Positions 2,082-57,200 of a DNA stretch of 64,000 nucleotides are shown in pieces. Source of the stretch: a virus; IMG/VR virus record IMGVR_UViG_3300037010_001749, positions 1 to 64,000 of that record; one strand, written 5' to 3'. How positions within the stretch are numbered: the first letter of the stretch is position 1; each line of letters begins with the position of its first letter. The notes beneath the pieces are model-generated. The model worked only from the letters and a program-made list of their open reading frames with translations. It made no database searches and had not been told where the DNA came from. The position numbers and the translations under genes are program-made.

Positions 2082-2099
2082 GCTGGTAGCGCTGCAGCC

Positions 2100-40243: not shown

Positions 40244-40622
40244 TGGATGCCTCCGTCAAGGTGTCGCAGAGGCTGTCCAGCATGGAGACGAGGCCGTCCA
40301 CTATGGGTTGGCGCATGCCCTTCTCGATCGCCTGCTTGGCCAGGTCGCGGGCAGATCCCAGCACGTCACTGGCCGCCTCGAGGCAGCCCAGGATCTCCTG
40401 CAGCCGGTCGTAGGTGTAGGCGCCCGGCGTGGTGTCCGCCATGGCCTCAGCGTCGTCGGCGATTGAAGAAAGGTCGACCTCGGCATCGCCGATCCGGTCA
40501 TGGAGGTCCACGCAAAAGGACTTGTCCATCTCGTTGGTAAACGTGGCCTGCAGCAAGCTGCTCATGGCCCCACACTCAGTTTCGACAGCTAGGATCTGGC
40601 CGCGGATGTCTTCGATGCTCAT
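40236..40622 (-). CDS. Acidic helical hypothetical protein
   Basis: AAGGA RBS; overlaps the downstream gene. Confidence 0.55.
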   Translation of the reverse strand: MSIEDIRGQILAVETECGAMSSLLQATFTNEMDKSFCVDLHDRIGDAEVDLSSIADDAEAMADTTPGAYTYDRLQEILGCLEAASDVLGSARDLAKQAIEKGMRQPIVDGLVSMLDSLCDTLTEASNA

Positions 40623-40631
40623 GTAGATCCT

Positions 40632-40808
40632 TCAGTGAGCGTCGCCGCGTTCTTCGCGGCGAAGCAATTCCTTAACCTTGAGGAGGGAGTAGAGCCTGCG
40701 CCCTGGGTTGGACAGGACCAGGCTCGGTGCCAGACATCGTCTGGCCACCAGGCTCCGCAGAATCTCTGCGGGCTTGCCGACACGCTCCGCAATGTCGGCC
40801 AGGGTCAT
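40632..40808 (-). CDS. Small HTH protein
   Basis: MTLADIAERVG....L..L.....P........LYS. Confidence 0.4.
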   Translation of the reverse strand: MTLADIAERVGKPAEILRSLVARRCLAPSLVLSNPGRRLYSLLKVKELLRREERGDAH

Positions 40809-41731
40809 CTTCGGACCCGCGTCAACGCTTGCGGGTCTTGCTTTTGGGAGGTGGGTCACGGCGCAGCGTTTGCATGGCTTCGTATGCCCAGTCCGTGAAC
40901 CATTGGAGGTTCCATTCCTGGGCCTGCTGAAAAGTCTGGTCGTCATCGAAGACCACTTCGAAGCCCGAGACGCTCTCGAACCATTGGCACCAGGCAACCT
41001 GATCTTCTGCCAATTCTGGGTAGACCGCTTTGTAGTCGATCATGGTGCCTCCTGGCTATTGGGGTTTTCCCTGGGCCACTGCGGAAACGAGGCCACGAGC
41101 GTGCGCTCCACGCGGTAGACCTCGATCGGGCCATCGGCCTGGTATTGCATCAAGTAGCGGCCCATCTCGGCCATGGCCTCAGGCATCGTCGGGGCTTCAA
41201 CCGCAGCAACAAGCTCCCCGTTGCAGTGCATCTCTGCTTCGTATCCCATCAGTGCACCTTCTCCACAGTCCAGCCGCCAAAGCGTTGGTCTTCTTTCACC
41301 ACGATCGGCATATCCTTGTATCGAGCGTAGGCCAGGATCACCCACAAGGTTCCGCCGGTGGCACTGAGGTAGTAGCCGTCTTTCTCGAACTGCCTGGCCA
41401 GCTTCTTCGCTGTGGCCCGGCGTAGCGGGATGGGCCGGCCCATCGTCGGCCACTCTGGCCGGGGTTCGATCACGTGGCGCCCGTCGCCCTCGACGACGTA
41501 GGCAGCATCACTTGTCTTCGAACAGCTTCTCGACATGGGTCAAATTACTCCACCGATTTTCGTCAGGCTGCCATTGCAAGCAAGAGCAGCTGAACCCGTT
41601 GAGATGCTCACGCATGACCCAGCGAAAGCCGTCGCCTGTATCCTGGTATACCGTGCGCAGGACGCGCCCAATGCTCACGGGAGCCGGAGTGCCTTCAGGC
41701 ATGCCTGGGTTCTCCAAATTCACTTCCATGC

Positions 41732-42481
41732 CTACTCCTTAGCCCTAGAGAAAAGCCTGGGCGCCGCAAACTTGCGCGCCTTCCGCCCGTGGACTGTGAT
41801 GACCACTGAGGCCCTATTGCTTCGGCCGTCGGCCGTGCCGTTGCATGCACCGCACGCGATGCACGTGAGGCGCTTGCCCGCCTCTTCGCTGGCCGGGCAG
41901 ACCATCTCACGCACTCCGGCCCCAGCCTTGGGCGTGCGCACACGGAAGTAACGCAGCCCCAGAGTCTGGGCCAGCGTAGCTTCAGCATCGCTGTCGACGC
42001 TGGCCATGCAGAGTTCGGTGACACCTTGCCACTGCTCCAGGGGCAAGTCTCTGTTCTGCCACTGGTGCGTGTAGCCTGTGTGGCCTGCGGCCTTGGACAC
42101 CAGGGCCTGCCAGACCCTGGCAGGCACAGCCATCGGGTCCCCATAGGAGCCCAGGCGGACCATTCGGCCCTCACCCAGCACCGAGGGGTCTTCGTGCAGA
42201 GGGTAGCCGCCGCGGCGCCACTTCTTGTAGACCACGGCAGGCCCACGGTCTACCAGCACATAGCAGGCACCGCCGCGGCTGGGGCGCCAGGCACACTCTC
42301 CGCACACAGAGACATCTGCGCCCGAGGCTACAGCCTCAGCCGGGTGCATGTCCTGGCGCAGGATGTATGTCTGCACCATGTTGCCTGTCTTCACGTTGGC
42401 GCTCGCCTTCAGGGCAATGGCCATGATGGGCGCCGCGTCAAGCAGCGACGCCCCTTGCCAGATGACGTGGCCCGTCGTCAT
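41732..42481 (-). CDS. Cys-rich putative metal/Fe-S protein (GP88-like)
   Basis: N.KTG, CGEC.......CY, R....GD, YTH, ASV and CPA.......C..C..C motifs. Confidence 0.45.
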   Translation of the reverse strand: MTTGHVIWQGASLLDAAPIMAIALKASANVKTGNMVQTYILRQDMHPAEAVASGADVSVCGECAWRPSRGGACYVLVDRGPAVVYKKWRRGGYPLHEDPSVLGEGRMVRLGSYGDPMAVPARVWQALVSKAAGHTGYTHQWQNRDLPLEQWQGVTELCMASVDSDAEATLAQTLGLRYFRVRTPKAGAGVREMVCPASEEAGKRLTCIACGACNGTADGRSNRASVVITVHGRKARKFAAPRLFSRAKE

Positions 42482-44610
42482 GTGGGTTCGTCGGCGAGCC
42501 AGCTTCGCGGCACGCAGTAGCATGCAACCATACCGCCTATAGTCGGCATCTCTTCGCCTTCCAAGTAGAAACCCCCATCGAGGTCAGCCGCCCCGGGCAC
42601 GTAGGGACTGCAGGCCCTGTTGGCATGACCGGCTGGCCCGGCGAACACCCACAGCAGCGGCGCACCACCCAACCAGTCAATCCGATAGTTGACGCCGTCA
42701 TAGACGCCTTCGATGATCGGCTCGCTGATATCGATGTTGTCTCGCCGGCGCTCGACGTGTTCCTCGACAAAGGCATCCTTGTCCGGCTCCTGATTCTTGA
42801 ACCCGAACCAGTTTTGCTGGAAGATCTCGGAGTCGAAGCCCACCTCTCGGTCAGCGCCGCTCTCAGCGGCGCTAATGCAGCACTCCTCCGTCAAGGCTTC
42901 GTATTCGCCCTCGGCCTCGGCCACCAGTTCAGTGACGGCCGCCTCGTAGCTGACGTCCTTGGCGTGCTGGCCATAGAACAGGTCATCCAGGCACCAGGGC
43001 TGTAACGAGTTGAAAGAGATCACGCCGTAGGCGAGACCAGTGGTGGGGTTGTAGTCGGGCATCGTTGCTCCTTAGGGCTAGGTACGCTCACACCTCAAGC
43101 CACCACGCGGCCCGAGGCTGAGAAGAAATATGTCAAGCAAAACTTGTCATCTTCGAGCCGCGCAACCGCCGGATGTGCAGCCACTCGCCGTCTGTGAGAC
43201 TGCGTAGCTTCACAGCGTCACCCGCTCAGCCAGCGCCTGGCTGATCTCACCATTCCGGGACAAGCTGTCGACGTAGTCCGAGAAGGCGCAGCGTGTGTCG
43301 GTCACGTGCATGGTGCCGTTGCCGCTGTAGTCGGGGGTCTTTTTGCGCTCCGCGTCGGGGTGCGCTTCCCAAAAGGCAGCGCGAACCTCACGCTGCGCGG
43401 TGTAGGTAGGCTTCACAGCGGGTAGCCCACCCGCTTCACGACCTTGCAGTTCACCACCTCGACCGTGTCTCCGACACGGATGACACCCTCCCGCCGGCTC
43501 ATACCAGGTTCAAGGTAGTGACCCACCAACTGTTGCAAGCCAGGTAGGCGTCGTAATCCTGGTAGAGATCCTTGGTGCCTTCGTAGTGGCTCACGCGGAG
43601 CCGGTACAGCTGCCGCTCCGCGTGGAGGTTTGCGTTACCGTGGTCCACCAGCACAGCCGCGACGCACTCGCTGTTGTTCTTGATGACGATGACCTGTGTA
43701 GCTGCGTTGGGGCTCATGCTTCGAACCCCGCCTGGAAGCCGAAGTAGGCGATGTCCACGTGGCCACGGCTGCAGAAGACCATGTCGAAGTCGCAGGGATT
43801 GACGAGGCCTTCGATGTACCCCTGCGCCTTCCGGTCTTCGCGCCAGGCTTTGGCCACTTCAGCCCGCGCCTTCTTCAGTGCAGCCAAGGCCTCGGTGTAG
43901 TTGTCGCCAGCCGGCACAGACACCAGTGCCACATGGAAGGGCCAGGCGTGCACCCAGTCGGGCGGGAACCTGTAGTGGAGCACCACCGTCCAGGGCTTGC
44001 TGGCCCTCACGACAGCGTCTCCGACTTAGCCTCTTCACCCAGGGCGCGCAACGTGGTGGCCAGCAAGGTACTGGCACGGATCGGGCTCATGCCCGAGGCG
44101 ATGAGCAGGCGCTTCGCGTCCTGCATGGCCTGCAGCCCCTGTAGATTGGTCTGGCGCACGGCACTGCTGAAGGTGCGGATGATTTCGTGTTCGATATCGT
44201 TCAAACGTCTTCCTTAGGGTTGGGGAAAGGCTTGCGCTCCAAGGGGAACGAGGCTAGTCGGATCTGGCCCATGCCCTTGCGAATGTAAATATGCTGGCGG
44301 TGATCAAAACGAAAGGCCAGCATGTCACTGGCCAGGTTGGCCTTCAGGATCGCCAAGTCTTCGGTGTGATAGAACGCCCATCGGGCGGCCTTGATGGCGC
44401 GGCCAAGGTCGCGCCAGGTCTAGCGCAGCGGGGTCACCCCACCACCGCCATGTCGCGCTCGCAAGTATTGAACTCCAGCCCGTGCTCCACGGCTAGGTCT
44501 TCGGCCTTCTGCAGAGCATCCTGCTCCGACTCGGCTTCGATTTCCACCATCGTGGCGTACGTCTCCGTGACGGCCACTTTGTACATTTTGGTCATGCTAT
44601 TGTCTCTAGA

Positions 44611-44628
44611 TTAGCTCGAACGTTATGC
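44611..44628 (+). repeat. attC right half-site (left border of array)
   Basis: TTAGCTCGAACGTTATGC is identical to the end of attC 46862-46931; no left arm upstream. Confidence 0.8.
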
Positions 44629-44744
44629 GCCTGTCTCGGAATGGGTGAGCTTCACCGCATGCCAAGTGCCTAAAACCTCGTCTGCCGCCGTCAGCCAGTC
44701 TTGCGGCAGCGGGTGCGCTTCAGCAGGGCCAGCGCAGCGGCACC

Positions 44745-45458
44745 CTACTCCACCGGGTTCACTGCGCTTCGCGCAATCTCAATGAGCAAGTCTCGGAACT
44801 CAGGCGGTGTACCGTTGCGGATCGCAGTCTTATCCTTGCCGCCCACCATCGCCATCATTCCAATGCGCCGCGCTTTCGCGTATCCGGGCAACTCCACGGC
44901 GCGCGGGTGTAGCCGCTGCGGTGTCTTGCCCCAGCGCAGTTCGGGCAGCAGGCGCTTTTGCACGCCAGCCACAAGCAGCCATGTTCCTTTGCCGGCAAGG
45001 TGCCCGTAGTGGCCTTGGTACACGCAGCACGTCCACAAGCCTGGCGCGGCCTCAACCCACCCACCTTTGCGCGGCGGCTTCTTCAGCCTGAAGTACGCCC
45101 ACGCATGCGAGTCCATCGGGTGTTCAAGCACGCCACCGTTCAGACGCAGCGCCGCCAGTGCGGTAGCAAAACACCCATCGTCGGCGCCCAGCTTGTACTG
45201 GTGCGGCTTGCGCGTGCTGCCGTGCCAGAACCTGCCCCAGCGCTGGCAGGGCAGGTGCGCCACTACCGGGTGCGGGCCTGCATAGGTACGGGCATCGCGG
45301 GCTTGGTCCCACGGGTCAACGCCCGGCACGCCTACATAGCAGCCCTTCGGCTCAACGTAGAGGGCCGCCACCGTACGGAAGCTCTCCACCTGGCGCATAA
45401 CCCCTCGCACAAGCTGAGAGCCAACGGCGGGTGTAATGGGTGCTTCAGGTTTGGTCAT
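44745..45458 (-). CDS. Cassette 1: divergent DNA cytosine methyltransferase-like protein
   Basis: VAAL.V, DAR.Y, VAH(L)PC, VLEHP and C-terminal TP..F...L; ATG lies inside the attC loop. Confidence 0.5.
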   Translation of the reverse strand: MTKPEAPITPAVGSQLVRGVMRQVESFRTVAALYVEPKGCYVGVPGVDPWDQARDARTYAGPHPVVAHLPCQRWGRFWHGSTRKPHQYKLGADDGCFATALAALRLNGGVLEHPMDSHAWAYFRLKKPPRKGGWVEAAPGLWTCCVYQGHYGHLAGKGTWLLVAGVQKRLLPELRWGKTPQRLHPRAVELPGYAKARRIGMMAMVGGKDKTAIRNGTPPEFRDLLIEIARSAVNPVE

Positions 45459-45491
45459 GCCGTTGGTTCCAGCTTTGCTTGGTCATTAGGC
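45395..45491 (+). repeat. attC site, 97 bp, R' degenerate (ATTAGGC)
   Basis: GCATAAC...; near-identical to 47467-47563. Confidence 0.82.
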
Positions 45492-45679
45492 GGCTTGCGC
45501 AACTCGAACATCACAACCCGCCGCAGACCCAGGCGCCGCAGGTAGTCGGCGCTCGGGTTCACCTTCTCGCCATCACGCAGCCGCGACAGGTAGCCGCAGT
45601 CAATCTCGGTCACGCGGGCCACGGCGCGCAGGCTGCCGTGCTGCGAGACGAGTTGGTCAATGCGCTCTGCCAGCGTCAT
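45455..45679 (-). CDS. Cassette 2: XRE/Cro-like HTH protein
   Basis: SLRAVARVTEIDCGYLSRLRDG...NPS...LRRLGL; ATGA-coupled at both ends. Confidence 0.75.
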   Translation of the reverse strand: MTLAERIDQLVSQHGSLRAVARVTEIDCGYLSRLRDGEKVNPSADYLRRLGLRRVVMFELRKPPNDQAKLEPTA

Positions 45680-46020
45680 GACTGATACCCGGCCAGCGCG
45701 TTGGCTAGCGCGGCATCCGCTTCGCCGAGAAAATCGTCCGGCACAATGAACGACACCCACGCGGGAGCGTTCGGCGTTGCTGGATGCCTCGCGTATTGCA
45801 AGAGCGTCGCAAGCAGCACGGCACAGCGCTTCGGCGCAGCCCGCACCAGCACTGCAAACCGCTCCAGGTGCTCCTGCGTCACGCCGTGGCAGCCTTCGCT
45901 GTACACGCACGAACCGCTGCCGTGGTTCAGCACGTTCACCATTCCAGCAGCCTCCACCAGCGGGCCTAACCCCTCTGTCGAGCCGAGTGCCAACGGCTGG
46001 CTGGTTTTGGTAGTGTTCAT
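45676..46020 (-). CDS. Cassette 2: hypothetical protein
   Basis: AAGGAG RBS and ATG inside attC 45964-46068. Confidence 0.65.
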   Translation of the reverse strand: MNTTKTSQPLALGSTEGLGPLVEAAGMVNVLNHGSGSCVYSEGCHGVTQEHLERFAVLVRAAPKRCAVLLATLLQYARHPATPNAPAWVSFIVPDDFLGEADAALANALAGYQS

Positions 46021-46068
46021 CGTTGCTTCTCCTTGGCCGTTGTCACCGGCTCAACTCCAACGTTAGGC
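45964..46068 (+). repeat. attC site, 105 bp
   Basis: GCCTAAC...GTTAGGC; near-identical to 48750-48854. Confidence 0.9.
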
Positions 46069-46069
46069 C

Positions 46070-46444
46070 TCACACCAGCCACGATGCAGCGGCAGCTTGG
46101 CGAGAGGCTGTGTCGCGTGCCTTGATGCCCGCCAACAAGTCGGCGGCCAGCAGCGGGTATTCGGCGGCGCACGATTCTACGTATGCGCGCAGGGCCGCCG
46201 CAGCGTGCTTATCATGCGTCAGGTCCAGCACAAAGTAAACGCAGCCGCAGTGCTTGCCGCCCGGCGCGCTACTGCCGTCCGTTCGCGTCACGTTGAATCT
46301 GCTGTACAGCCCACGATTCCTGTCACAGGGCATTGGCTCGCCGCACAGTTCACACTTGCTCATGCTTTTCCTCGCTCCGGCACCAGGCCGAACCATTCGC
46401 ACAAGCTGCGCCCCAACGGCGGGGCACAGCAACTCGGTAGGCAC
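46070..46444 (-). CDS. Cassette 3: conserved phage hypothetical protein (start may be 46363)
   Basis: GLY..F.V.RTDG......FVLDL..D..A..AL.AY motif. Confidence 0.65.
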   Translation of the reverse strand: MPTELLCPAVGAQLVRMVRPGAGARKSMSKCELCGEPMPCDRNRGLYSRFNVTRTDGSSAPGGKHCGCVYFVLDLTHDKHAAAALRAYVESCAAEYPLLAADLLAGIKARDTASRQAAAASWLV

Positions 46445-46487
46445 CGCCTGCGCGGCCGTTGGTGCCAGCTTTCCTCAATCGTTAGCC
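46387..46487 (+). repeat. attC site, 101 bp
   Basis: GCCGAAC...GTTAGCC with inner CCAACGGC/GCCGTTGG stem. Confidence 0.85.
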
Positions 46488-46500
46488 AGCGCCAAAACCA

Positions 46501-46821
46501 TCACGCCGGCTCGTAGGTGGCTGCGAAGATGTCCGGTTTGCATGGATAGTGCTCGCCGGCCACGCCGCGAATGATCCAGTCGCCTGGGCTAGCGACATGC
46601 TGGCCTTCAAGCGTCGGAACCATGATGTTGTTGTTGTGCCATTGCGCCAGCTCGCGCCCGATGGCGTGCTGTCCCTCGTTGATCCAGAGAATCAGCGCAT
46701 AGCTACTTCCGTCGTTGCGGAACTGGCGTGCTTCAATCACGATAGGTTTCTTCCTGAAGCGCGTTGTCTGTTCGGTTGTTGCCGCGTCCAGCTCATGGCC
46801 GGCGCTGAGAAATGTTTGCAT
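46501..46821 (-). CDS. Cassette 4: conserved phage protein (PGDYG-like)
   Basis: RKKP.VIEA.QF...TLEG...PGDWII.GV.GE.YPCKPDIF..TYE. Confidence 0.7.
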   Translation of the reverse strand: MQTFLSAGHELDAATTEQTTRFRKKPIVIEARQFRNDGSSYALILWINEGQHAIGRELAQWHNNNIMVPTLEGQHVASPGDWIIRGVAGEHYPCKPDIFAATYEPA

Positions 46822-46861
46822 GACGGTTCCTTCTGTGTTGTGCCAGCATGGGTCGGGCGCT

Positions 46862-46931
46862 GGCTAACCCCTCGCTCAAGCGGATTTGCCACGGAGTACC
46901 ATGTCAAACGCGCTTAGCTCGAACGTTATGC
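46862..46931 (+). repeat. attC site, 70 bp
   Basis: GGCTAAC-CCCTC-GCTCAAGC...GCTTAGC-TCGAAC-GTTATGC; extra C in L''. Confidence 0.92.
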
Positions 46932-47530
46932 GCCTTGAGGCACGCCACCATTTGCCGCGCCGACTGTCTCGCGTCCATCAACGGGTGGTGCGCCGGTAGT
47001 TCGTCCGGCAAGCGCTCGGTCAGTTCCAGCGCGTTGCCGCCCAGCGCCAGGATCACGCTTGCCAAGTCGTGCAGCGGGTACGGGCCTTGCCACTCGCGCT
47101 CGGCGTGGTTCAGCTTCACGCACGCGCTCAGAAAGTTGGCTTCCACCGGCCAAGCGCAGTCAGCCACCAGCACCGCGCCCTGGTCGGCCCAGCTTCGCCA
47201 CTCATGCCAAAAGTGGTTCCGCAGGTGCTGCTTCGTTGGGCTTGTCACCGGCAGCGCCGGCACATGCTCGCCCACCCACAGCCGGCTTTCGGCGGTGCCG
47301 GTGCAGTCGGCGGGGTCGCAAGCAATGCAGCCTTCGTCCAGCCGCTCGCCTTCTCGGTTCACCACTACCCAGGCCACTGCAAAGCCCTCGCCATGCAGGC
47401 CAATGCTTTCCACGTCAAACACCATAAATTTGTCCATCACCATCCTCTCGTTTCTCGCTGCAGGCGCCGTAACACCTCGCACAAGCTGAGAGCCAACGGC
47501 GGGTGTAGTGGGTGCTTCAGGTTTGGTCAT
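46904..47530 (-). CDS. Cassette 5: DEDDh 3'-5' exonuclease/exoribonuclease
   Basis: VFDVES.G and H.PL.DA motifs; ORF begins and ends inside attC sites. Confidence 0.75.
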   Translation of the reverse strand: MTKPEAPTTPAVGSQLVRGVTAPAARNERMVMDKFMVFDVESIGLHGEGFAVAWVVVNREGERLDEGCIACDPADCTGTAESRLWVGEHVPALPVTSPTKQHLRNHFWHEWRSWADQGAVLVADCAWPVEANFLSACVKLNHAEREWQGPYPLHDLASVILALGGNALELTERLPDELPAHHPLMDARQSARQMVACLKAHNVRAKRV

Positions 47531-47563
47531 GCCGTTGGCTCCAGCTTTGCTCGATCGTTAGGC
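47467..47563 (+). repeat. attC site, 97 bp
   Basis: CCGTAAC...GTTAGGC; near-identical to 45395-45491. Confidence 0.85.
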
Positions 47564-47863
47564 GCTTACCGCAGGGCCAGCAGGCAGCGGCATCCAGTGC
47601 GTCACACGTCTCACCAGCGCTGGCGGCAGCGGCCAGTTGTGCTGGTCCACCTCCCACCGAGGGCCCTCACCAGTAAGCCGGAACTTCGTGATGTGCGCGT
47701 GTCCAGGAGTCAGCCGGTCAAAGACCCCGCGGCGCCACACCAGCACGGTGGCGTTGTGACTGGGCAAGCGCTCGCCAGTCGGCACCCACGCGCATAACCC
47801 CTCACTGCAACCGAGCCCCAACGGCTGGCCCGTGCTGCTGTCATCGGTAGTTTCAGTGGTCAT
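47558..47863 (-). CDS. Cassette 6: DUF551-like protein
   Basis: W....ERLP.....VLVW...VTHWMPLP; GAGG RBS and ATG in the attC loop; stop inside the R' box. Confidence 0.75.
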   Translation of the reverse strand: MTTETTDDSSTGQPLGLGCSEGLCAWVPTGERLPSHNATVLVWRRGVFDRLTPGHAHITKFRLTGEGPRWEVDQHNWPLPPALVRRVTHWMPLPAGPAVSA

Positions 47864-47911
47864 CGTGTTTCCTCTCGTGCCGTTGTGTCCGGCTCACCTC
47901 GAACGTTAGGG
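47792..47911 (+). repeat. attC site, 120 bp
   Basis: GCATAAC...GTTAGGG. Confidence 0.85.
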
Positions 47912-48079
47912 CGCAGGGCCACGCTTGCGGTTCTCGCGGCGCTGCAACTTCGCTTCCAGCGCCCTGACCTCTGGCACGTACTCCGGGCGCACATGCACTG
48001 TCACCGCAGTGCGCCCGGATTCCTTGTGGCGCTGCCGCTCGTCGGCCTTGCGCTCTGCTGCTGTTTTCGCTGGGCTCAT
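47906..48079 (-). CDS. Cassette 7: 57-aa basic putative DNA-binding protein (not in the ORF track)
   Basis: MSPAKTAAERKADERQRHKESGRTAVTVHVRPEYVPEVRALEAKL...; ATGA-coupled to the upstream ORF; TAA inside the R' box. Confidence 0.6.
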   Translation of the reverse strand: MSPAKTAAERKADERQRHKESGRTAVTVHVRPEYVPEVRALEAKLQRRENRKRGPAP

Positions 48080-48318
48080 GCCAGCGTGGCGCCGGCCGCT
48101 AGGTAGTGCGCCAGCTCGCTGTCCGGGATCGAAACGAACCTGTAGCCCATGCGGTGCGCAGTGGAGCCATCAGGAATGGTCACAACGCTGAACGGCTCAC
48201 CCTTCATTTCGGCAATCTGCTTTGCGTAGGCACGCACTGGCTCGGCCTGCGAGTGGATCGGTTCCACTTGCAGGGCTGCGCGCTGGCGCTTCAGTGTCTT
48301 GGTCATCTCAGCTTGCAT
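48076..48318 (-). CDS. Cassette 7: 80-aa hypothetical protein
   Basis: AAGGAG RBS then ATG (MQAEMTKTL...), downstream of a cassette-internal promoter. Confidence 0.65.
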   Translation of the reverse strand: MQAEMTKTLKRQRAALQVEPIHSQAEPVRAYAKQIAEMKGEPFSVVTIPDGSTAHRMGYRFVSIPDSELAHYLAAGATLA

Positions 48319-48357
48319 CTCTTGCTCCTTCTGCTGCACTGTAGCCGCAGTGGCTAC

Positions 48358-48386
48358 AGTATCGCTCATCGTGACACGTCACGCAA
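48358..48386 (-). promoter_or_regulatory. Sigma70-like promoter with overlapping inverted-repeat operator
   Basis: Minus strand TTGCGT-N17-GATACT; CGTGAC-AC-GTCACG at 48370-48383. Confidence 0.65.
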
Positions 48387-48401
48387 GCATTCTCGCGTGC
48401 G

Positions 48402-48507
48402 CCCTAACCCCTCGTTGCAACCGAGCCCCAACAGGCTGCGGTCAGTTGTGGCCTTTCGGCCTGCTTATGCACGGCCTGTTGGGGCCGGCTGAACTCGAAC
48501 GTTAGGC
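48402..48507 (+). repeat. attC site, 106 bp
   Basis: CCCTAAC...GTTAGGC; core identical to 49114-49219. Confidence 0.92.
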
Positions 48508-48806
48508 CCTTCAATGCCGCGAGCAATCTTGCTGGCGGCATTCCGCGCGTTCACCGTCACGCCGTCAGCGTGCGTCTCGCCCCAGCGGCGGGCAATGGCG
48601 GCGCAGCGTGCGCGCTCGGCGGCCACGGCCTTGTCAATGCGCCACTGCACATGCGCCGGGCTTGACCAATGGCCGCACTCGGCGGGGTCATCGTTTGTGC
48701 CGCAGATTGTCATGGTCAGGTATTGGCCCTCGCGCTGCGGTGGCAGCGGGCCTAACCCCTCTGTCGAGCCGAGTGCCAACGGCTGGCTGGTTTTGGTAGT
48801 GTTCAT
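48465..48806 (-). CDS. Cassette 8: hypothetical protein
   Basis: RBS and ATG in attC 48750-48854, stop in attC 48402-48507; AVAAERARCAAIA motif. Confidence 0.65.
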   Translation of the reverse strand: MNTTKTSQPLALGSTEGLGPLPPQREGQYLTMTICGTNDDPAECGHWSSPAHVQWRIDKAVAAERARCAAIARRWGETHADGVTVNARNAASKIARGIEGPNVRVQPAPTGRA

Positions 48807-48854
48807 CGTTGCTTCTCCTTGGCCGTTGTCACCGGCTCACATCGATCGTTCGGT
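48750..48854 (+). repeat. attC site, 105 bp
   Basis: GCCTAAC...GTTCGGT. Confidence 0.88.
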
Positions 48855-48861
48855 GTGTTGC

Positions 48862-49143
48862 TCACCGCGAGCAACCCAAATGCTTGCCGTCGCTCGTCAT
48901 GCGTGGCGTGAGTCCGCCGGCCGAAGTGCGCAGATACTGGCACCCGGTCAGCGCGTCGGTGCTGGGCACCAAGCCGCTGCGGGCGCCCCACGCGCCGGGG
49001 TCCGTGTCATCGCGCCCAATGGGCAGCAGGCCCACAACCAGCATCATGGCCACGCCAATCAGCAGGTACTTCCCGCACCAGCGGGCGAACATTTTTGCTT
49101 CTATCAACGACACGCCTAACCCCTCGTTGCAACCGAGCCCCAA
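48862..49143 (-). CDS. Cassette 9: small membrane-anchored protein (DUF6440-like); start uncertain
   Basis: Hydrophobic segment, then D..TGCQYL....GGLTPR...DGK. Confidence 0.55.
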   Translation of the reverse strand: MGLGCNEGLGVSLIEAKMFARWCGKYLLIGVAMMLVVGLLPIGRDDTDPGAWGARSGLVPSTDALTGCQYLRTSAGGLTPRMTSDGKHLGCSR

Positions 49144-49219
49144 CAGGCTGCGGTCAGTTGTGGCCTTTCGGCCTGCTTATGCACGGCCTGTTGGGGCCGG
49201 CTGAACTCGAACGTTCGGC
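49114..49219 (+). repeat. attC site, 106 bp
   Basis: GCCTAAC...GTTCGGC. Confidence 0.92.
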
Positions 49220-49220
49220 A

Positions 49221-49523
49221 TCAATACCGGCTTTCGAGTTTCGCCAGCGCCGCTTTGATGATCGACTGCATCACCTCATCGGTCATGTGCTTGGCCATTG
49301 CGTCCTTGATGCCGGTTTCCAGCAGCGGCGCGTAGGTGGCCAGCACTTCCTTTTCGATCAGTTCGCGCACGTACCGCTTGACGACATCATCGAATGGGTT
49401 GTTGTAGCTCTTGGACAGTTCAGCGATGCTGCGCTGAACGGCACCCTTCACTACTTCACCGATCTGGCTGTCCATCACAGTCTTGGCGATGAACTCGTTA
49501 ATTTGCTGCGGGGTCAGTTCCAT
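49221..49523 (-). CDS. Cassette 10: helical hypothetical protein
   Basis: AAGGA RBS; fills the cassette. Confidence 0.7.
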   Translation of the reverse strand: MELTPQQINEFIAKTVMDSQIGEVVKGAVQRSIAELSKSYNNPFDDVVKRYVRELIEKEVLATYAPLLETGIKDAMAKHMTDEVMQSIIKAALAKLESRY

Positions 49524-49546
49524 GTCGTTTCCTTCTGTGCGTTGAT

Positions 49547-49651
49547 GCCGAACTGGCAGTTCAAGCAGAGCCCCAACGGCGGCCTGCTTTTGTGGTTAAA
49601 AACTCCGGCGTCCGTGGCGCCGTTGGTACCTGCTTAACCTAAACGTCAGCC
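49547..49651 (+). repeat. attC site, 105 bp, R' degenerate (GTCAGCC)
   Basis: GCCGAAC-TGGCA-GTTCAAGC...GCTTAAC-CTAAAC-GTCAGCC. Confidence 0.85.
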
Positions 49652-49687
49652 GGCACCAATACCCTCGGTGCCGGCATACTCGTGTTG

Positions 49688-49966
49688 TCAGAACGTGGTG
49701 GGCTGCGCAATGCCGCGAATCAACTTCATGAAGCCCACTTGCAGGTCAGTGGCTCCCATGCTGACCCACCGCTGGTCAAGGTCCAGTGACAGCGGCCTGC
49801 CATCGGCCACAGGCGTATCGGTGCGCGTGATGTCAGGGTGTTGACGCAGTTTCGCCACAAAAGCGCCGCACTGCTCGGCCAGCGCCTTGCCCTCGTTCAT
49901 CAGCGCTACTTCAGCACCGCTCAGTTGACGGTAGCCCGTCACTTTCGGTTGAATCATCGTTTCCAT
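49688..49966 (-). CDS. acb2: Cassette 11: Acb2-family anti-CBASS cyclic-nucleotide sponge
   Basis: 92 aa; K.TGYR.LS..E..LMN..K...RW...G.TD.Q.G.M..IR.IAQP..F matches the Acb2 pattern as I recall it. Confidence 0.85.
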   Translation of the reverse strand: METMIQPKVTGYRQLSGAEVALMNEGKALAEQCGAFVAKLRQHPDITRTDTPVADGRPLSLDLDQRWVSMGATDLQVGFMKLIRGIAQPTTF

Positions 49967-50006
49967 GTGGTTCCTTAAGTTGCATGCCAGCGTTGGTGCG
50001 GGTGCT

Positions 50007-50076
50007 GGCTAACCCATCGCTCAAGCGGATTTGCCACGGAGTACCAAGTCAAACGCGCTTAGCTTGAACGTTCGGT
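50007..50076 (+). repeat. attC site, 70 bp
   Basis: GGCTAAC-CCATC-GCTCAAGC...GCTTAGC-TTGAAC-GTTCGGT; near-identical to 46862-46931. Confidence 0.92.
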
Positions 50077-50310
50077 CCGTTCATTCGCCACCGCCACTGC
50101 ATCAAGCACACCCGGCTTCATCGCCAGTTCCAGCAGGCTGCCCATCATGCGCTTGCCGTGCGCCCGGTTGGCATCCAGTAGATCGATGTACTTCTTGCGA
50201 TACTGGTGAAGTTCTTCGTTTTCCTCGCGCAGCCGCTCTAGTTCGTGATGCATGTCCAGCACGTCGGCGGCCATCTGCACAGCCAGGGGCACTTTGTAGT
50301 CTCGCCTCAT
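50059..50310 (-). CDS. Cassette 12: coiled-coil hypothetical protein
   Basis: GGAG RBS; stop lies in the L' box of the next attC. Confidence 0.65.
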   Translation of the reverse strand: MRRDYKVPLAVQMAADVLDMHHELERLREENEELHQYRKKYIDLLDANRAHGKRMMGSLLELAMKPGVLDAVAVANERTERSS

Positions 50311-50329
50311 CTCGTTTCTCCACCAACGG

Positions 50330-50365
50330 GCCTAACCCGTCGCTCAAGTTGAGAGCCAACGGCGC
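50330..50365 (+). repeat. attC left half-site (right border of array)
   Basis: GCCTAAC-CCGTC-GCTCAAGT..GAGAGCCAACGGC; no right arm, runs into the next phage gene. Confidence 0.8.
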
Positions 50366-50377
50366 CAGCAGGCACCG

Positions 50378-51289
50378 TCATGCCGCCTCCTTAGCCTTGA
50401 GGAGGCCCAGTTGGTGGGCGATACCTTCGATCTCATCGAAGGCGATGTCATGGCAGCCGACCACGATATTGCCGTTGGTGCAGATCTTCGTCAACTCGTA
50501 GTGACCCAAGGTCATGCCTACCTCGTAGTCCTTCTTGCCCTTCATGACGCGCTGGATGACCGGCCAGAGCTTCTTCGCGTCTTCGACGGGGATGCTGGCG
50601 TGGCGGCTGGTCTGGATCATGAACGACGGCAAGTCCAGCCGCAGCATCGTCGGAAGATCCCGGCTGAGCGCTGGGCTCCCACTCCGCCGCCAGGCTGTAA
50701 TGGCGACGGCCTGCAGCCTCCGAAAGGCCTTGGCCTGCGACACTGCGCGGCGTTTCTCCGAGACGGCTTTCTTGGCCAGGTGCTCGCGGTGCTGCTCCGG
50801 GCTCCACGTCGCCGCATCGATCGGCTTGATACGGGCCTTGTGCTTCAGCAGCTTCGCAAACTGGTTGAAGTCGGCGGTGATCTGCGCCGCTTGGCTGAGG
50901 TAGACAGGCCGATTGCCGTCGGCCTTGGCGCGTAGGGCCTTGGCCAGCAGGTTGTCGACGAGGGCCTGAGTGCCTTCCGTGTCCGGCGCGTCGTGCTCCG
51001 GGTTCAGCACGGACACCTGCTTCAGGTGCCTGGTGGCGTGTCGTGCCTCCCAGACGTGCCTGTTTGTCGTGGAAGAATTCTTCTCCAGGTTGATGGCCAC
51101 CCAGCCGCCGGGTAAGTGGCGACCGATGCAGTAGTGCTTGCCGTAGCTGTAGAAGTAGTCGCCTTCGACGAAGGCCTGGATGACGCGGCCGCCGTTCATG
51201 CCGGGACGCTCGGGCATCCGAGCTTCAGCCTGCCGTTTGTGGGCCCAGATGTGGGCCAGTTCTTCCGAGTGGTTGTACACCGTCTTCAT
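50378..51289 (-). CDS. Hypothetical early protein, ~303 aa
   Basis: GAGG RBS; ATGA overlap with the upstream ORF; YSYG.HY and GCH motifs. Confidence 0.7.
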   Translation of the reverse strand: MKTVYNHSEELAHIWAHKRQAEARMPERPGMNGGRVIQAFVEGDYFYSYGKHYCIGRHLPGGWVAINLEKNSSTTNRHVWEARHATRHLKQVSVLNPEHDAPDTEGTQALVDNLLAKALRAKADGNRPVYLSQAAQITADFNQFAKLLKHKARIKPIDAATWSPEQHREHLAKKAVSEKRRAVSQAKAFRRLQAVAITAWRRSGSPALSRDLPTMLRLDLPSFMIQTSRHASIPVEDAKKLWPVIQRVMKGKKDYEVGMTLGHYELTKICTNGNIVVGCHDIAFDEIEGIAHQLGLLKAKEAA

Positions 51290-54200
51290 GCGATGAGTCC
51301 TCGTTGTCTTGCGTACTCGACCAGATGGGGTTGCCACTCAGCTTCGCTGTTGGCTGACCGACTATTGAAGCCGGCGAGGCGTGGAGCGGTCAGGTAACCC
51401 GACTCGATCTCCTCGTTGATGGCCTCGACATCAAGGCTGAAAATCTCGCGCCCCCTCGGGGTGCTGAGGCTGGCGTATCCGTCGCCTCGTTCAAACCACA
51501 CGCTGGCCACGTACTCGTGGTCAGCGATCTTCTTTGCCATGGCGGCTCCTTAGGGCTAGAGAACCCGGCCGATGCGGTCCTGGCCTTTGATCTTGATGGC
51601 CATGTCAGTACAGGTTCTCGCTGTACAGCGTCCCATCGTTGGCATCGTCGCCACCGCAGCGGCGGACGATCTGGCCTGCCGCTTCGGCAACCTTCCAGGC
51701 CACCGTCCGAGACATGAACACACCGTGCTGGTCGATGAAGCCCTGCTCCTCTTTCGGGTCATGCGGAGTGAAGGCCTGCACGAGTCGCCACTGGTCGCGC
51801 ATCACCAGGTCCCAGTGCCGGGCGCCGACCAGCATGTGGTAGTCGCCGATCTTGGTGGCCGCGCAAACGACGCGTCTCATCGCACACCTGACAGGTTCTC
51901 GTACTCTTCGACGCCCATGATGACGCACTCGATGACAGCCAGGCCGTCTCGAAGCCACATCGGGCACTCGCGCTTGGCCTGCTGCCCGTCTTCCTCCGTC
52001 AGGTGGAACTGGTTCGCACCCTTCTCGAAGCCCAGCGGCTTGCCGGCGCGATCCTTCTGCATGGCCACCCACACTTGAGTCGGCGCCGTCACTTCAGCAC
52101 ACCTGCAATCTTGGCGTACTTCTCGAGCAGTTCCGGGAACGCATCTTCGATGCGCCGGATGCTGTCGTCGTCAGCCACGAGGTAGGCCTCGGCCAACTTG
52201 GCGGCGAACCCTCCGCCGTAGGCTCGCATCACCCGGATGATGTCCAGGCGGTCGTTCAGTTCGTAGTGCATGACGCCTCCTTAGCGCTGAGGAGCCAAGG
52301 TATAGAAGCGGACCGCCGCATCGCGGCGCCAGGCATCCAGCAGTTCACCGTCAGCGCCGGGATACTTCTGGACCTTGTCGCCCACCCAGGCCCGCTGCAG
52401 GTTCTCCTTCAGACGTTCCGCCTGAACTGGGTCAGCAAAGCGCGACACCGTGAGCAACTCGTTGGGCGGGTCGCACACGACGGTGTACAGCGTCGGGTGG
52501 TAGAGCGGCGGGATACCCGCCTTCTGCTGATGCCACGTGCTCAAGCTCGATCCTCCTTAGCGTTGAGGGCGTTGGCGATAACCTGGGCCTGCCCCATGCC
52601 GGAGCACTCGCAGACGACCTGGTTTCCGTACCAGTCGTCGCCTGCCTCTCGTGCGTACGGCGGCGGGTCGATGTTCGTGTCCACCACTGAGGCATCAAAG
52701 CAGCAGGCATGGCCGAGGATGCTGCGCTCCACAGCCTTGTACCGCGGCGTCATGTCACCTCCCGCAAGGTGGCCTTGTCGCGCAAGTCAGCACGCCACTG
52801 CTCGGCCCAGCTGGTCAAGTCTGGGATGTGCTCACGGACAAGCTCGCACACCATGTCCGCGAAGTAGCCTGCGGCGCAGCGCTGCCAGAACTCATCGGCG
52901 TTGCCGTAGCAACACGCGCCCAGGCTTTCCTCGCCCAGCATCTCGCCACGGTGCCATAGGCTCACGTCGGCGTTGAACCAGGCGAAGTCCTCGATCTCGC
53001 GGTACTGCTGCGGCGTCCACCCGCACTCCTTCACGAAATGCCGGTGCATGCTGACCGACTCTTCCGGAGGAGCATCGAAGCAAATCATGTAGTCGGTGCC
53101 AGGGATCACAAGCACTGGTTTCATTTCTGCCTTTCAGCGAGGCCAGAGGCTGCGGCGGCTTCCGCATGCTCCAGCGAACCCAGGTAGCTGCGGCCTTCAA
53201 TGGCGCGCAGTTCGGTCAGGCGGTCGCCCAACTCCTTAGCCCTGAGGAATTCGTCCCCGGCCAGCCGGCTGCCCAGCGCCTTCAGGATCAGCAGTGTGTC
53301 GAACTTGTTGAGTTCGAAGATCCAGTTGGGCTTGAGGTGCAGTTGCGGCTTGTCGATTCGTTCACCGTTCATCGGCTATCCCTCATCTTGTCCACGTTGA
53401 AGCGCTTGATCCAGCGCTCGATGATCGTGTCGCACACGCCCAGGCCATCCAGCAGCCCATCGAGGTCTTCCGCACGCAGGCATAGGCTGACGTGCCCGTA
53501 ACTCTCGTGGCTTTCGATACCCCGCTCCGGATCACCCTTGAACGCCTCGTCGAGCATGTCAATCAGCTGAGTGACGTAGTAGCCACCTGGCTGCTGATTG
53601 CGCTCTTCGGCGTCACGCAGCACAAACTCCAGCCGGTGCCCATGCCAGGTCTTGACGTTGAGCCAGCCGTCGACGTGGGTCAGCTCAGCATAGATGTCGT
53701 CGTCGTCGCTCACAGCTTCTCCGCCACCAAGCCAGCGAGCATCGTGCGCATGGCCTGGGTGTAGCCCATCAGGTAGAGATCGCCGTTCTCCTTAGCGTTG
53801 AGTATGATGTTGTCCAGGCCCTGGAACATCGATTCGATGCGGTAGTCATCGACTAGCCGGTTGCGCCGTCGGCGGTCAGGCCGCTCGATCCCTTGATTGT
53901 CGGTGTAGTAGTCCATGTCAGGTCTCCACGATTCGTGCGTCCCAGCCGTAGGCGATACTCTCGCCTCCCTTGGACAGCATGTTGAACATCTGCTTGATGT
54001 CATCGAGCACGTCATTTGGGTCACGCAGCATCTCGCCTTCCTCGGACGGGAGAAGCGTGACCATGATGTGCACGGGCTTCGCCCGCGGCTCGCCATCATC
54101 GGGGCCATCGGCCCCGGCACGCTCGAAAGGCTCGTGGCTGTCGCAGCCGTCGTCGTACTCTTCAGGGAGCATCAGCTTTCCTCGGGTGCAGCGTAGAGCT

Positions 54201-57200
54201 GCTCAACGACAAGGTCCTGGGGCCGGGCCAGCGGCGGTTGGGTGTAACGCCAATGTTGCGACTCATCGGAGTTCTTCCAGAACCAGCGCGTGCCTGCGTA
54301 ATACGTCAAGGGGCTCGCCTGAAAGGCGGCCTGCAGCATTGCTCCATAACCATCTTCTTCAACCGCCTCCATGGCGTCGAGCATCGCTCGTGTCGCCACG
54401 GTGGGCACCAGCTTCCAGTGGGTCACAGGTCCACCTCGCGCCCATCGGGCATGATCAGCGTGGTCTCGGTGCTGATACCGAGCACCGCGTCGAGGATCTT
54501 GAGGCTGTAGCTGGGCAGGGCCGGCGCCACGAGATTTTCGAGCGTCTCGTGCAGGGTTTCCACGTGGTCGTCCTGGTTGGGGTCGAAGTCGTCGGGCACT
54601 TCGACCTCGAACGTCTCGCGCTCCCAGACGGCCTGGTCGCGTTGGATTCGGATCTTCATTCAATGCCTCCAAACAAAGCCGTCTTCGGTGAGGAAGCCGC
54701 CGCCGATGCCACGTTCGGTGTAGGCGCCTTGCAGGGCGTACTCGAGGACGTCAAGCTGGGTGAGTCTCACCGCCCGGCTCCTTCGCGTCCTGGTACATCG
54801 GGCACGACGGCGTCAGGCCGTCACAGTTTTCGCGAATCAGACGCCGACGGACTTCCGCGTAGCCGTCGCTCATGGCGCAATAGCTGTCGCCGTCCTGATC
54901 TGCGTCTCGGTAGGGGCATCGCCCGCACTCGGTCACAAAGAAGCTGAAGCCCTTCACAGCAGCCTCGCTACTTCAAGGCGAAACTGGTCAATCATCCTGG
55001 TAACGTGCCAGGTGATCGGTAGCACGTCATCGACGCGCCACCATGAGCCGGCCCTGATCTTCTTCGGCGTGAAGCCCCAGGCCTCGATGTCCTGCGCCTT
55101 CATCACGAAGGGCAGGGCCGCGTTGAGTTCGGCGGTGCTCACGTAGAGCACACCGTCGATCATTTCAGTCTTCAAAGGACCTCCTTAGGGCTGAGGATCA
55201 GGCAAAGCGCTGGGCGCTCTCTCGGTACCAGACATACTCTTCTTGGGCCCAGATCCAGTCTGGGTAGCCAAGGCACTTGACGGCTTGCCAGATTTCCTCG
55301 CAAGCCCCGGCCTGGCCTTCAGCGTAGGCCTTGACGTATTCGGCGTACACCTCCTCGGGTACGTCCATCACTGCAGTTTCGCCAACTGTTGCTTGCCCAG
55401 CGTAGTCAACCACAGCTTGCCCGCTGAGTCCACCGTGATGTACCTCAGGTCATCGAAGTAGGTGGCCCACAGCCGCGGGCCCACCGGATCGAAATCGTCG
55501 AAGAAGATGACCTTGGTGGCACCGCCACCAGTGTTGTGCACGTACTGCAGCACCTGCTTTTGGAATGTGCTCATCCCGCCTCCTTAGCGTTAGGGAGCCG
55601 CCGGTGCTCCTGCCGGTCGTCTTTCAGCCGCTTCTCGACCCGGTCACCAGTCCCGCCGTTGACGGCGATGTGCACAAGGCCGTCGACCCAGGGCTCGCAG
55701 TAGAAGCTGACCGTGTTGGCCACCAGGATGGCGGCCAGGCGTTGGGCCGTGGCCTCATGCATCTCGAAGATGGCGACCCCATCGGGACCACCCTTGATGA
55801 GCAGGGCCACGTCAGTCCCCCGGCGTGTCGCTGCTGGGCGCGTCGTAGCTGGCGTCGGCACCACCGCCGCCGAAGTCACCACCGCCGCCGGACTCAATTC
55901 CGTCGGTGCCGCCGAAGCCCACGGTCGGACGGCCTGTGCCCTCGGGAATCTCGGGGCTGTCCTGGATCGCATCGACGATCAAGCTGCCCACAGCCATGGC
56001 CTCGGTAGGCAGTGCGCCGACTGCCGGCGGCGCCCAGTGAAGCTCCAGCGCCTCGGGGTAGAAGGTTCTGCCATAGCATTCGGCATAGTGCGTCACGTAA
56101 ACACGGCCCGAACTGCTGGCGTTGTTCGGCGCGCTGGCGTCGTCCAGGCGCCAGACGTCACCCCACTTGTCAGTGATCCGCTGGCCGGCCACAACAGGCT
56201 TGAACCACTTGTCCAGCAGCGTATAAGTGCCGTTGTACCCTTGCTTTTCCATGTCTGACTCTCCTTAGTCCTGGGGAACGTAATTCTTGAAAAAGACCCG
56301 GCCATAGCTCTGACTCGGGACCTCATCGGGAAACGCGCTGCGGCTTCCGCAGCGATCTTGGTTGGGTAGAGCACGTCGCGCAAGTCTTGCACGCGCCAAA
56401 GATCCACGACATCAGGCATCGCCTACGTGGCGCAAGTAATCAGTCACTTGGTTTCCTTTGCCAGTGAGCGGGCCACACGTGCCCGCAGCTTCTCAAACTG
56501 CACCATCTCATCGGTAATCTCGTCGAGCACCTCGTCGTAATAGTTGACATCGGGGCAGGTGGCGATCTGGTTGTGCAATTCCGCGATGGCCAGGCCCAGG
56601 CCCTCGTGGACCATCTTCAGGTTCTTGCCTGTGAAGATCACGGAGCGCACCCCATGATCTGCTTGCGCACCCAGACATCCTGCTCGCGCCGGTCGATCAG
56701 TTCCTTCAGCGCGTCAGCCAGATCCTGGCTGTCCACGTGCTCGAAGTCTCCAGTGGGTAAACGCGCTCCGCGGTTGGCTGACAGGCCCCCCTCGTGGCGC
56801 ATGCGGCGCAGCTTGCTGTGCATCGTGTGCAACTCCTCAAGGCTAAGGTTCAGTACGGTCCCCAGTCGTATGAGTAGGGCACGTCGAACCAGGCCTGCTG
56901 CGGCGACATGCCTGCTTCGAAGCGGCTCTTCCATGCCTGGCGTTCTTCCAGCGGGCCGGACTCCGCGTCATAGTGCGCCAGCTTCTTCTCGGCGGCGATG
57001 CGCTTGAGTTCGGCAAACCACACAGCCTTGTCCCAAGGCAGGCCCACCAGGTGCTTGTGGCGGTTCACCACGTTGAAGTAGATGCCGTCCTCGTCACTGG
57101 CGAAGTAGCCGACGATGCGCTTGCCTTTGTGCTCGGTCACGGCCGGCACGCTGAAGTAGGTGTCAGCGTAGCCGCTGGCGTAGCAGGTGAGTCTCAGCTG

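Follow-up and report, generated by a model that had tools for sequence, protein, structure and literature searches.

The first 64,000 nucleotides (nt) of the IMG/VR virus record IMGVR_UViG_3300037010_001749 (85,895 nt in all; CheckV completeness estimate 71%), hereafter the window, hold an array of 11 full integron attC recombination sites and two end remnants, in which the small cargo genes all read opposite to the direction expected of integron cassettes. Four pairs of these sites are near-identical and stand before unrelated genes. We consider the pairs best explained, with moderate confidence, by integrase-independent copying of the attC core and its leader between cassettes that already existed, within a reversed cluster of attC sites lacking an integron integrase (CALIN) in a siphophage. 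An earlier note, made from the sequence alone, had read the pairs as a possible trace of cassette creation, with existing attC/leader modules grafted onto new phage genes.

The four pairs lie at 45395-45491 / 47467-47563 (attC 1 and 5, 97 nt), 45964-46068 / 48750-48854 (attC 2 and 8, 105 nt), 48402-48507 / 49114-49219 (attC 7 and 9, 106 nt) and 46862-46931 / 50007-50076 (attC 4 and 11, 70 nt), exactly the positions and equal lengths that the earlier note gave. Ungapped identity is 90% for 1/5, 95% for 2/8, 99% for 7/9 and 92% for 4/11; when the 11 full sites are aligned globally, the values are 92%, 94%, 98% and 91%, and the other 51 of the 55 pairings fall at 45-75%, so that the four pairs stand far above the family background. 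The paired cargo is unrelated. An all-against-all blastp of the 14 cargo proteins found no two similar (best E = 0.11), the paired proteins giving E = 0.72, no hit, no hit and E = 6.1, which turns aside the explanation that homologous cargo had simply been duplicated. What the partners share is an attC/leader module whose limit is R'' (the left end of the site) or the ribosome-binding site that precedes the start of the cargo. Identity stops at R'' in pairs 1/5 and 7/9. It extends 6 nt beyond in 2/8, beginning at CAGCGG, just outside R'' as originally described, and about 40 nt past R'' in 4/11, through a hairpin of the 5' untranslated region (UTR) and the ribosome-binding site to the cargo ATG.

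We compared these sites with a set drawn with one 16-base pattern from the R''-L'' arm, which matched 55 viral loci, of which 43 hold attCs by nhmmer, and at least 160 stretches of bacterial genomes. The window partners (91-98%) are mutually closer than they are to any copy in the 55 viral loci, where the best outside copy reaches 95% for type C and at most 84% (78-84%) for the remaining three; such closeness suggests that the copying happened in this lineage. The final 13-16 nt ahead of R' (the right end) group differently from the cores, reading TCGAACGTT in attC 4, 6, 7 and 9 and TCGATCGTT in attC 5 and 8, which fits repeated short exchanges. A provirus array in contig L019 offers a contrast: there a whole cassette occurs twice (186-289 and 1261-1364; attC 97%, cargo 100% over 149 amino acids), a simple duplication unlike the window pairs.

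From left to right, the parts of the array are as follows, c1 to c12 being the cassettes that lie behind (3' of, in gene sense) attC 1 to attC 12:

44434-44595, - strand: gene whose start ATG (44593-44595) is the counterpart of the start codon in type-A attC loops
44587..44630, + strand: left-end remnant, the L'-spacer-R' half only, with R' GTTATGC at 44622-44628 (nhmmer model positions 63-104, E = 0.004; covariance model 8.4 bits)
44745-45398, - strand: c1, phrog_12600
45395..45491, + strand: attC 1 (type A, partner attC 5), 90.6 bits, R' ATTAGGC; its loop ATG (45456-45458, - strand) overlaps the stop of the upstream helix-turn-helix (HTH) gene as ATGA
45676-45942 and 45455-45685, - strand: c2, a two-gene cassette, the second gene being the HTH gene
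45964..46068, + strand: attC 2 (type B, partner attC 8), 103.8 bits; AAGGAG and ATG unpaired in the loop, frame continuous into the cargo
46070-46363, - strand: c3, phrog_9572
46387..46487, + strand: attC 3 (unpaired type), 77 bits
46501-46821, - strand: c4, phrog_419, weak PGDYG
46862..46931, + strand: attC 4 (short type D, partner attC 11), 45.4 bits
46904-47440, - strand: c5, exonuclease-like according to the earlier note, family match absent
47467..47563, + strand: attC 5 (type A), 94 bits; loop ATG at 47528-47530 in frame with c5
47558-47863 with leader, - strand: c6, DUF551 (PF04448, 33.2 bits); its stop is the TTA of the attC 5 R'
47792..47911, + strand: attC 6, 79.1 bits
48076-48369 and 47906-48079, - strand: c7, a two-gene cassette
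48402..48507, + strand: attC 7 (type C, partner attC 9), 96.3 bits; loop without start codon
48465-48713, or to 48806 with leader, - strand: c8; its stop lies about 40 nt inside attC 7
48750..48854, + strand: attC 8 (type B), 106.9 bits
48862-49092, - strand: c9, phrog_14094, a small membrane-like protein
49114..49219, + strand: attC 9 (type C), 97 bits
49221-49523, - strand: c10
49547..49651, + strand: attC 10 (unpaired type), 80.9 bits, R' GTCAGCC
49688-49966, - strand: c11, Acb2/Tad1 (PF24729, 47.1 bits against a gathering cut-off of 27)
50007..50076, + strand: attC 11 (short type D), 43.6 bits
50059-50310, - strand: c12
50330..50403, + strand: attC 12, the degenerate right end (24.6 bits, E = 0.00028), an R''-L'' arm and a loop with AAGGAGG and ATG, the L'-R' arm being lost under the 3' end of gene 50378-51337; its short leader reading frame ends as ATGA on the c12 start

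Relatives of two of these cassettes carry the same gene next to a different core. The orthologue of c5 in viral contig L006 has a cargo protein 88% identical and shares both the R'' junction and the R' end, with an unrelated loop; the attC 5 core instead matches its in-window partner attC 1. The orthologue of c9 in viral contig L044, again 88% identical in protein, agrees with the window through R'' and spacer and from the L'-R' spacer onwards around unrelated cores, and the attC 9 core equals that of attC 7 and of a copy in contig L003. Because c5 and c9 are found with other cores elsewhere, those cassettes predate their present core. Outside the window, contigs L017 and L034 encode a cargo protein that is 100% identical over 139 amino acids beside attCs only 79% identical. 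Their DNA is identical for 116 nt up to L'' (5' UTR, R'', spacer and outer L''), differs across inner L'', loop and inner L', and is identical again from L' to GTTA, where agreement ends at the next cassette.

The same pattern extends across the viral set. The 87 long viral attCs with cargo form 3741 pairings, of which 13 are at least 90% identical, 10 of them with unrelated cargo. Conversely, the eight cargo pairs at least 87% identical in protein share their attC (97-99%) in three cases and show background identity (69-79%) in five. Because an integrase crossover at R' keeps attC and cargo together, some further process must be at work; conserved cargo and arms around a differing interior indicate that the attC core, leader included, was replaced beside stable cargo. 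Core replacement among existing cassettes is thus evident in these alignments, and the integrase-independent exchange at attCs that the earlier note had proposed emerges as its best-supported point. That copying of this kind took place within this genome, and by what molecular route and in which direction, we infer from such comparisons.

The creation of new cassettes, in which a resident attC/leader is duplicated and grafted before a non-cassette phage gene, seems to us an unlikely cause of even one of the pairs, although several junctions are of the kind it predicts. In pair 4/11 and in the group of contigs L017, L051 and L014, the shared module, with a short UTR and a ribosome-binding site, ends at the cargo ATG. 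Pseudomonas phage Persinger has a non-cassette homologue of c1 that starts M-IAALYVE, at a point only 8-9 codons in from the cassette junction; the c1 cassette of the window reads MRQVESFRTVAALYVE, its ATG lying inside R''; and a second cassette version of c1, in contig L004, has a different attC joined six codons closer to the protein core. In these two comparisons the attCs therefore abut native N-termini, the gene's own UTR being absent. Creation also agrees with the window partners being closer to each other than to outside copies. These junctions fit a joining of attC modules to gene starts at some time and do not date that joining to this genome. On the other side, c5 and c9 occur elsewhere as the same cassettes with other cores, so that at least one member of two pairs was already a cassette, and core replacement beside protein-identical cargo is seen directly in relatives. 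With prior cassettes and observed replacement, creation is not needed for any pair. Of the earlier reading, then, the abutment of modules and unrelated genes holds; a reading of the pairs as a specific trace of creation is not supported, since c5 and c9 are older than their cores.

The identity of the repeated elements as attCs is clear. Of the inverted core sites that delimit an integron attC, R'' (consensus RYYYAAC) carries AAC in 12/12 sites, and R' (consensus GTTRRRY) starts GTT in 9/11 full sites, the exceptions being attC 1 and attC 10. Folding gives, for either strand, a long imperfect hairpin that has an R-box stem and an unpaired spacer beside the end stem; the bulged bases lie on the 5' arm of the + strand, and the L boxes and the 5-nt/6-nt spacer asymmetry of attC hairpins are present. 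As a control, the window model aligned end to end with the sense strand of the aadA1 attC of plasmid R100 (43.4 bits, E = 3e-10), and the antisense strand scored only 13.8 bits. The window sites are therefore genuine integron attCs that closely resemble a classical one in sequence, and their canonical top strand is +.

The covariance model, built from the 11 + strand attC sequences and giving rough E-values, found one further convincing site in the 64-kb window, the degenerate twelfth; nhmmer over the whole record added one half site and nothing in the remaining 22 kb. No PF00589 or tyrosine recombinase match was found across the 85,895 nt. A CALIN comprises at least two clustered attCs with no integron integrase nearby, and this integrase-less cluster of 11 full sites in 4.7 kb counts as one. 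It differs from a sedentary chromosomal integron in that intI is absent, the left end is an L'-R' remnant with no recognisable attI, and an array-wide identity of 45-75% with four pairs above 90% departs from the homogeneity expected there. The two array ends are complementary remnants (L'-spacer-R' on the left, R''-L''-loop on the right) and may fix the end cassettes in place.

The canonical cassette layout, a promoterless open reading frame (ORF) on the top strand followed by attC, is absent from the window. All cargo ORFs are on the - strand, including those with family matches (Acb2, DUF551, phrog_12600, phrog_419, phrog_9572 and phrog_14094), and with the top strand on + each attC lies 5' of its gene. 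A canonical cassette is counted from the TT of one R' as far as the G of the following R', which assigns an attC to the gene with its 5' end against R''; once the top strand was fixed, the attC-gene assignments of the earlier note proved correct. The unit so defined recurs as a whole elsewhere. The exonuclease-like c5 with attC 5 (46913-47562) recurs in L006 at 86% over 657 nt, and c9 with attC 9 (48821-49223) recurs in L044 at 81% over 404 nt, in both cases with neighbouring cassettes that differ from those of the window.

Orientation was then counted in one way in viruses and bacteria, with genes called by a heuristic based on G+C content at third codon positions (GC3) and near-identical contigs removed only when the sequence was exact. 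Among 86 unique full-length viral attCs, window included, the gene at R'' lies on the bottom strand in 67 and on the top strand in 9, with 10 uncalled. Among the matches listed, the bacterial stretches are mostly from Burkholderiales, such as Rubrivivax, Aquabacterium, Hydrogenophaga and Leptothrix, and their 159 unique full-length attCs divide into 17 bottom, 101 top and 41 uncalled. The same method thus returns the textbook layout in bacteria, among the matches listed, and its mirror image in viruses. We rejected the alternative that the - strand is the top strand, with stops and starts placed as in normal cassettes: the R100 control rules it out, as do the co-travel of attC and gene in L006 and L044 and the orientation of the bacterial arrays. 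A contig of a beta-proteobacterial metagenome-assembled genome (L063/L064) holds an attC cluster with mostly reversed genes; the binning of a prophage or phage contig together with its host could account for this, as could exchange between the two pools.

The reversed arrangement places the bottom-strand hairpin loop upstream of the cargo, and many viral loops carry translation signals. A ribosome-binding site with an ATG occurs in the bottom-strand loop of 43/86 viral sites against 9/159 bacterial ones among the matches listed; on the top strand the same signal is found in four viral and four bacterial loops. A downstream gene could be called for 104 unique viral sites. A loop start is present in 41 of these, and in 38 of the 41 it is in frame and open into the cargo, where chance would give one third or less; the remaining three leaders end 15-29 nt past the attC. 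Window attCs 1, 2, 5, 6 and 8 have such an in-frame start. The ribosome-binding site and AUG of attC 2 and 8 lie in an unpaired loop of 30-plus nt, and the loops of attC 1 and 5 begin with the AUG. For c6, whose DUF551 domain begins directly after R'', the loop ATG probably serves as the start. These frames suggest that translation starts at the loop ATG and runs into the cargo. Upstream genes often stop in the attC as well (56 of 72 called viral cases), 42 of the 56 at the TAA complementary to TTA in GTTAGGC, and by the crossover rule, which cuts after the G, that TAA belongs to the gene's own cassette.

Several further observations concern these signals. The ATGA overlap between the HTH stop and the attC 1 loop start (45455-45458) is seen in 6/72 viral cases, and ribosomes ending one cassette gene could restart inside the next hairpin. 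The spacer next to R'' (+ strand positions 8-12) is CCCTC in 8/12 sites, which in gene sense is GAGGG, ribosome-binding-site-like and just upstream of R''. The gene at 44434-44595 is DpnD/PcfM-like and begins MTK as the type-A leader does. The attC 10 loop contains a terminator-like hairpin and U-run (- strand, 49622-49606) between the Acb2 cassette and c10. Both c2 (45455-45942) and c7 (47906-48369) consist of two overlapping small genes, one member of each matching a transcription-regulator PHROG weakly (phrog_8, E = 0.00092; phrog_536, E = 0.0006). A sigma-70 promoter scan of 44000-52500 found 0 sites against 1.5 expected and thus no sign of promoters inside attCs.

Whole cassettes also appear to move. 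Four viral contigs share an attC at 98-100%, and identity stops right after the GTT of R'. In a contig from another sample, 47907 is followed by 19 diverged letters and then by 48871, so that cassettes 7 and 8 are absent; the joint falls at the GTT of attC 6/attC 8 in a single contig of depth 3.7 whose shorter side is 30 letters. A crossover at R'' by top-strand recombination, considered for reversed cassettes, was rejected, since R' bounds the shared units on either side. Integron integrases (TIGR02249, 396-427 bits, cut-off 265) adjoin arrays of the same family in 3/25 related viral records, in which the reversed cassette genes lie upstream of intI in the same direction. One of these records is a provirus with the integron at its edge beside a host Lon gene. 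Six related records have a completeness of 90% or more. An integron integrase occurs in just one of them, the provirus record; of the other five, one has a weaker tyrosine-recombinase match and four have none. This rarity of intI in near-complete relatives makes a host enzyme acting in trans the likely rule. In L222 (G020), 1489-3081, the integrase gene has its first reversed cassette gene 28 nt upstream on the same strand; intI looks like the last gene of a cassette operon, with little room for a classical attI and cassette-promoter (Pc) region.

Such movement raises the idea of independent capture, by which the cassettes arrived with their attCs through integrase insertion and the pairs are common types in a pool. 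We regard this as quite improbable. Cassette gain or loss at R' is indeed seen, the attC shared by the four contigs stands with at least three cargos, and the type-C attC is found at 94-95% in L003 with a third, unrelated cargo. Yet four pairs among 11 sites are many for a pool so diverse that 13/3741 viral pairings reach 90%, and in three of the four the closest copy elsewhere is 78-84% identical, against 91-94% between the window partners. Capture would in any case only shift the question of one attC on unrelated cargo into the pool. An assembly artefact, in which similar attCs were threaded through a shared path or cassettes of different strains joined, is hardly credible: in all four runs the Logan contigs end at the repeated cores, none of those listed spans the array, and interleaved repeats (B..C..B..C) would permit alternative paths, but the repeats, at 70-106 nt, are about one short read's length or less (source read length not given), partners differ by 2-9% where a collapsed path would give no differences, paired-core bins have about twice the depth of single-copy bins in two likely source runs, two junctions across repeats recur in the independent contigs L006 and L044, and the same phenomenon appears in many other contigs.

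Deletion by homologous recombination between paired sites, also raised in the earlier note, is plausible given the 70-106-nt repeats and the SbcCD-like pair of the phage. Among the Logan contigs of four runs, which end at the repeats, no hybrid attC linking one partner's left flank to the other's right flank was listed. We set aside a number of Logan joints. Those at 46074/46075-46864, 46075-49114, 46932-49112 and 48507-49318 have sides of about 20 nt made of conserved R'/R'' letters, and those at 46386-48481 and 46427-48478 join different attC interiors; all are possibly from other elements, and we draw nothing from them.

Starting from the site identity, strand, cassette unit, frame linkage and replaced cores described above, we propose the following mechanism for copying between existing cassettes. 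The reversed unit would read, in gene sense, attC hairpin, cargo and often a TAA from the cassette's own TTRRRY hexamer. Phage transcription would read the attC bottom strand, many hairpin loops would supply a ribosome-binding site and start codon, and translation would pass through the L''-R'' arm into the cargo. Whole cassettes would move by integron-integrase crossover between the G and TT of R', with the enzyme supplied by the host or by related phages carrying one. A second, integrase-independent process would copy a tract of about 55-60 nt (inner L'', loop/leader and inner L') between the attCs of different cassettes, with the conserved arms on either side (R''-spacer-L'' and L'-spacer-R') as its anchors. 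The route could be gene conversion, recombination at short homologies or a template switch at the hairpin, and the outcome would be the same attC/leader placed before unrelated genes. We are evenly divided on a wider proposal: that Burkholderiales phages keep their own mirror-image cassette pool, using the attC family and integrases of their hosts, in which attC is a translated 5' module (loop start, own TTA-hexamer stop) and cores with leaders are exchanged by short-tract conversion faster than cargo diverges.

Several points weigh against this account. The identity beyond R'' (about 40 nt in 4/11, 6 nt in 2/8) is unexplained by a core-only tract alone, and for these two pairs no orthologous cassette was found elsewhere, so that grafting may have occurred there. 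Conversion, integrase action and loop translation alike rest on comparison of metagenome contigs. The one-pattern comparison set samples one part of the attC family, gene calls depend on the GC3 heuristic, and the IMG/VR 'viral' label is unchecked for some contigs. Two of the 11 sites are without GTT in R' and may not recombine, and, the record being 71% complete, its missing part could hold an integrase.

The genome around the array is that of a siphophage, probably with a host in Burkholderiales. The window contains tail tube, tape measure, tail tip and lysozyme genes as well as a family A DNA polymerase, a primase-like gene and the SbcCD-like pair. The earlier note had named Rad50/Mre11-like and resolvase genes: the former are present in the Pfam scan (18305-20410, AAA_23/SMC_N; 20403-21443, Metallophos), and a separate resolvase gene was not found among the 96 ORFs scanned. 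Its cargo names fared similarly. Acb2 lies above the Pfam cut-off and PGDYG is weak (E = 0.021, below cut-off), while the 'methyltransferase (MTase)-like' and 'exonuclease' genes have no Pfam match at E <= 1 and fall in the unnamed phrog_12600 or in no PHROG. Among 50,697 GenBank phage records no close relative was found, only short cargo matches, such as one to phage Persinger (67.5% over 517 nt); the window polymerase is less than 30% identical to anything in those records. Rfam (E <= 1, 40000-56000) returned only a chance small nucleolar RNA match and holds no attC family, and a tRNA scan found none. Beside the polymerase (22809-26240) lie a dATP/dGTP diphosphohydrolase N-domain protein (PF18909, 80.7 bits; 26241-26675) and a weak MazG-like protein (27671-28273), which hint at altered nucleotide metabolism, and between those genes a 341-amino-acid ORF (26662-27687) has no Pfam or PHROG match.

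These cassettes bear on two long-open questions, how cassettes arise and why the attCs of one genome look alike regardless of gene. They supply natural cases of the same cassette with different cores and of the same core on unrelated genes, the limits of the exchanged tract being placed to about 20 nt, and the mapped swaps make the conversion hypothesis testable. If conversion is the cause, sameness of attCs within one genome may stem from it and not from local cassette birth. Phages also appear here to re-use host recombination sites, reversed and translation-ready, to shuffle small accessory genes, among them one predicted counter-defence gene assigned to the Acb2 family by its Pfam match. 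For annotation, gene callers and integron finders that expect same-strand cargo upstream of attC mis-assign cassettes and start codons in such phages.

Some parts of this system have known counterparts. Integron sites can supply translation signals: a short ORF in attI1 boosts translation of the first cassette, and attC hairpins hinder ribosomes. As with attI1, a recombination site here aids initiation on a cassette gene; the attI ORF is separate, whereas in the window the reversed cassette carries the start codon in its own attC loop, in frame with the cargo. Array-specific attCs are the classical basis for inferring local cassette genesis. The attCs of sedentary chromosomal integrons are homogeneous, whereas the window array is heterogeneous, with four tight pairs only. 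For such integrons, gene conversion has been suggested to homogenise attC (59-base elements, 59-be)(Boucher et al. 2006, PMC1382264). The window resembles that situation in having the same recombination site on unrelated cargo within one genome, but the suggestion came without cases in the text available, and we found no published ones for 59-be sameness; here, orthologous cassettes with swapped cores mark the tract.

CALINs in phage genomes were described by Qi, Rajabal, Ghaly, Tetu and Gillings (2023, PMC9892861), who reported phage attCs to be IntI1 substrates. Our array is like theirs in being an integrase-less phage attC cluster with small accessory genes, counter-defence functions included. 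Their arrays are said to 'resemble' bacterial ones, whereas the window has 11 full sites and all genes reversed. Bottom-strand cargo, loop start codons and repeated attCs on unrelated cargo go unmentioned in the available text of that paper, whose supplementary tables may list strands; within the same limit, the literature searched yielded no account of phage cassettes that are reversed, of start codons in the loop or of an attC-core replacement that had been mapped. Burkholderiales chromosomal integrons share the attC family of the window, by the R''-spacer-L'' pattern and by hits to the window model, and so presumably the same integrases. Their arrays carry top-strand cargo in 101/118 called cases among the matches listed, the reverse of the viral arrays. 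Inverted cassettes, mostly toxin-antitoxin, have been reported in the Vibrio cholerae chromosomal integron (Richard et al. 2024, PMC11023631), and their cargo likewise lies opposite the attC top strand. As far as that report's available text goes, they are a minority with their own promoters in an otherwise normal array, whereas the window array is wholly reversed, and across the related viral contigs reversed genes make up 67/76 called cases.

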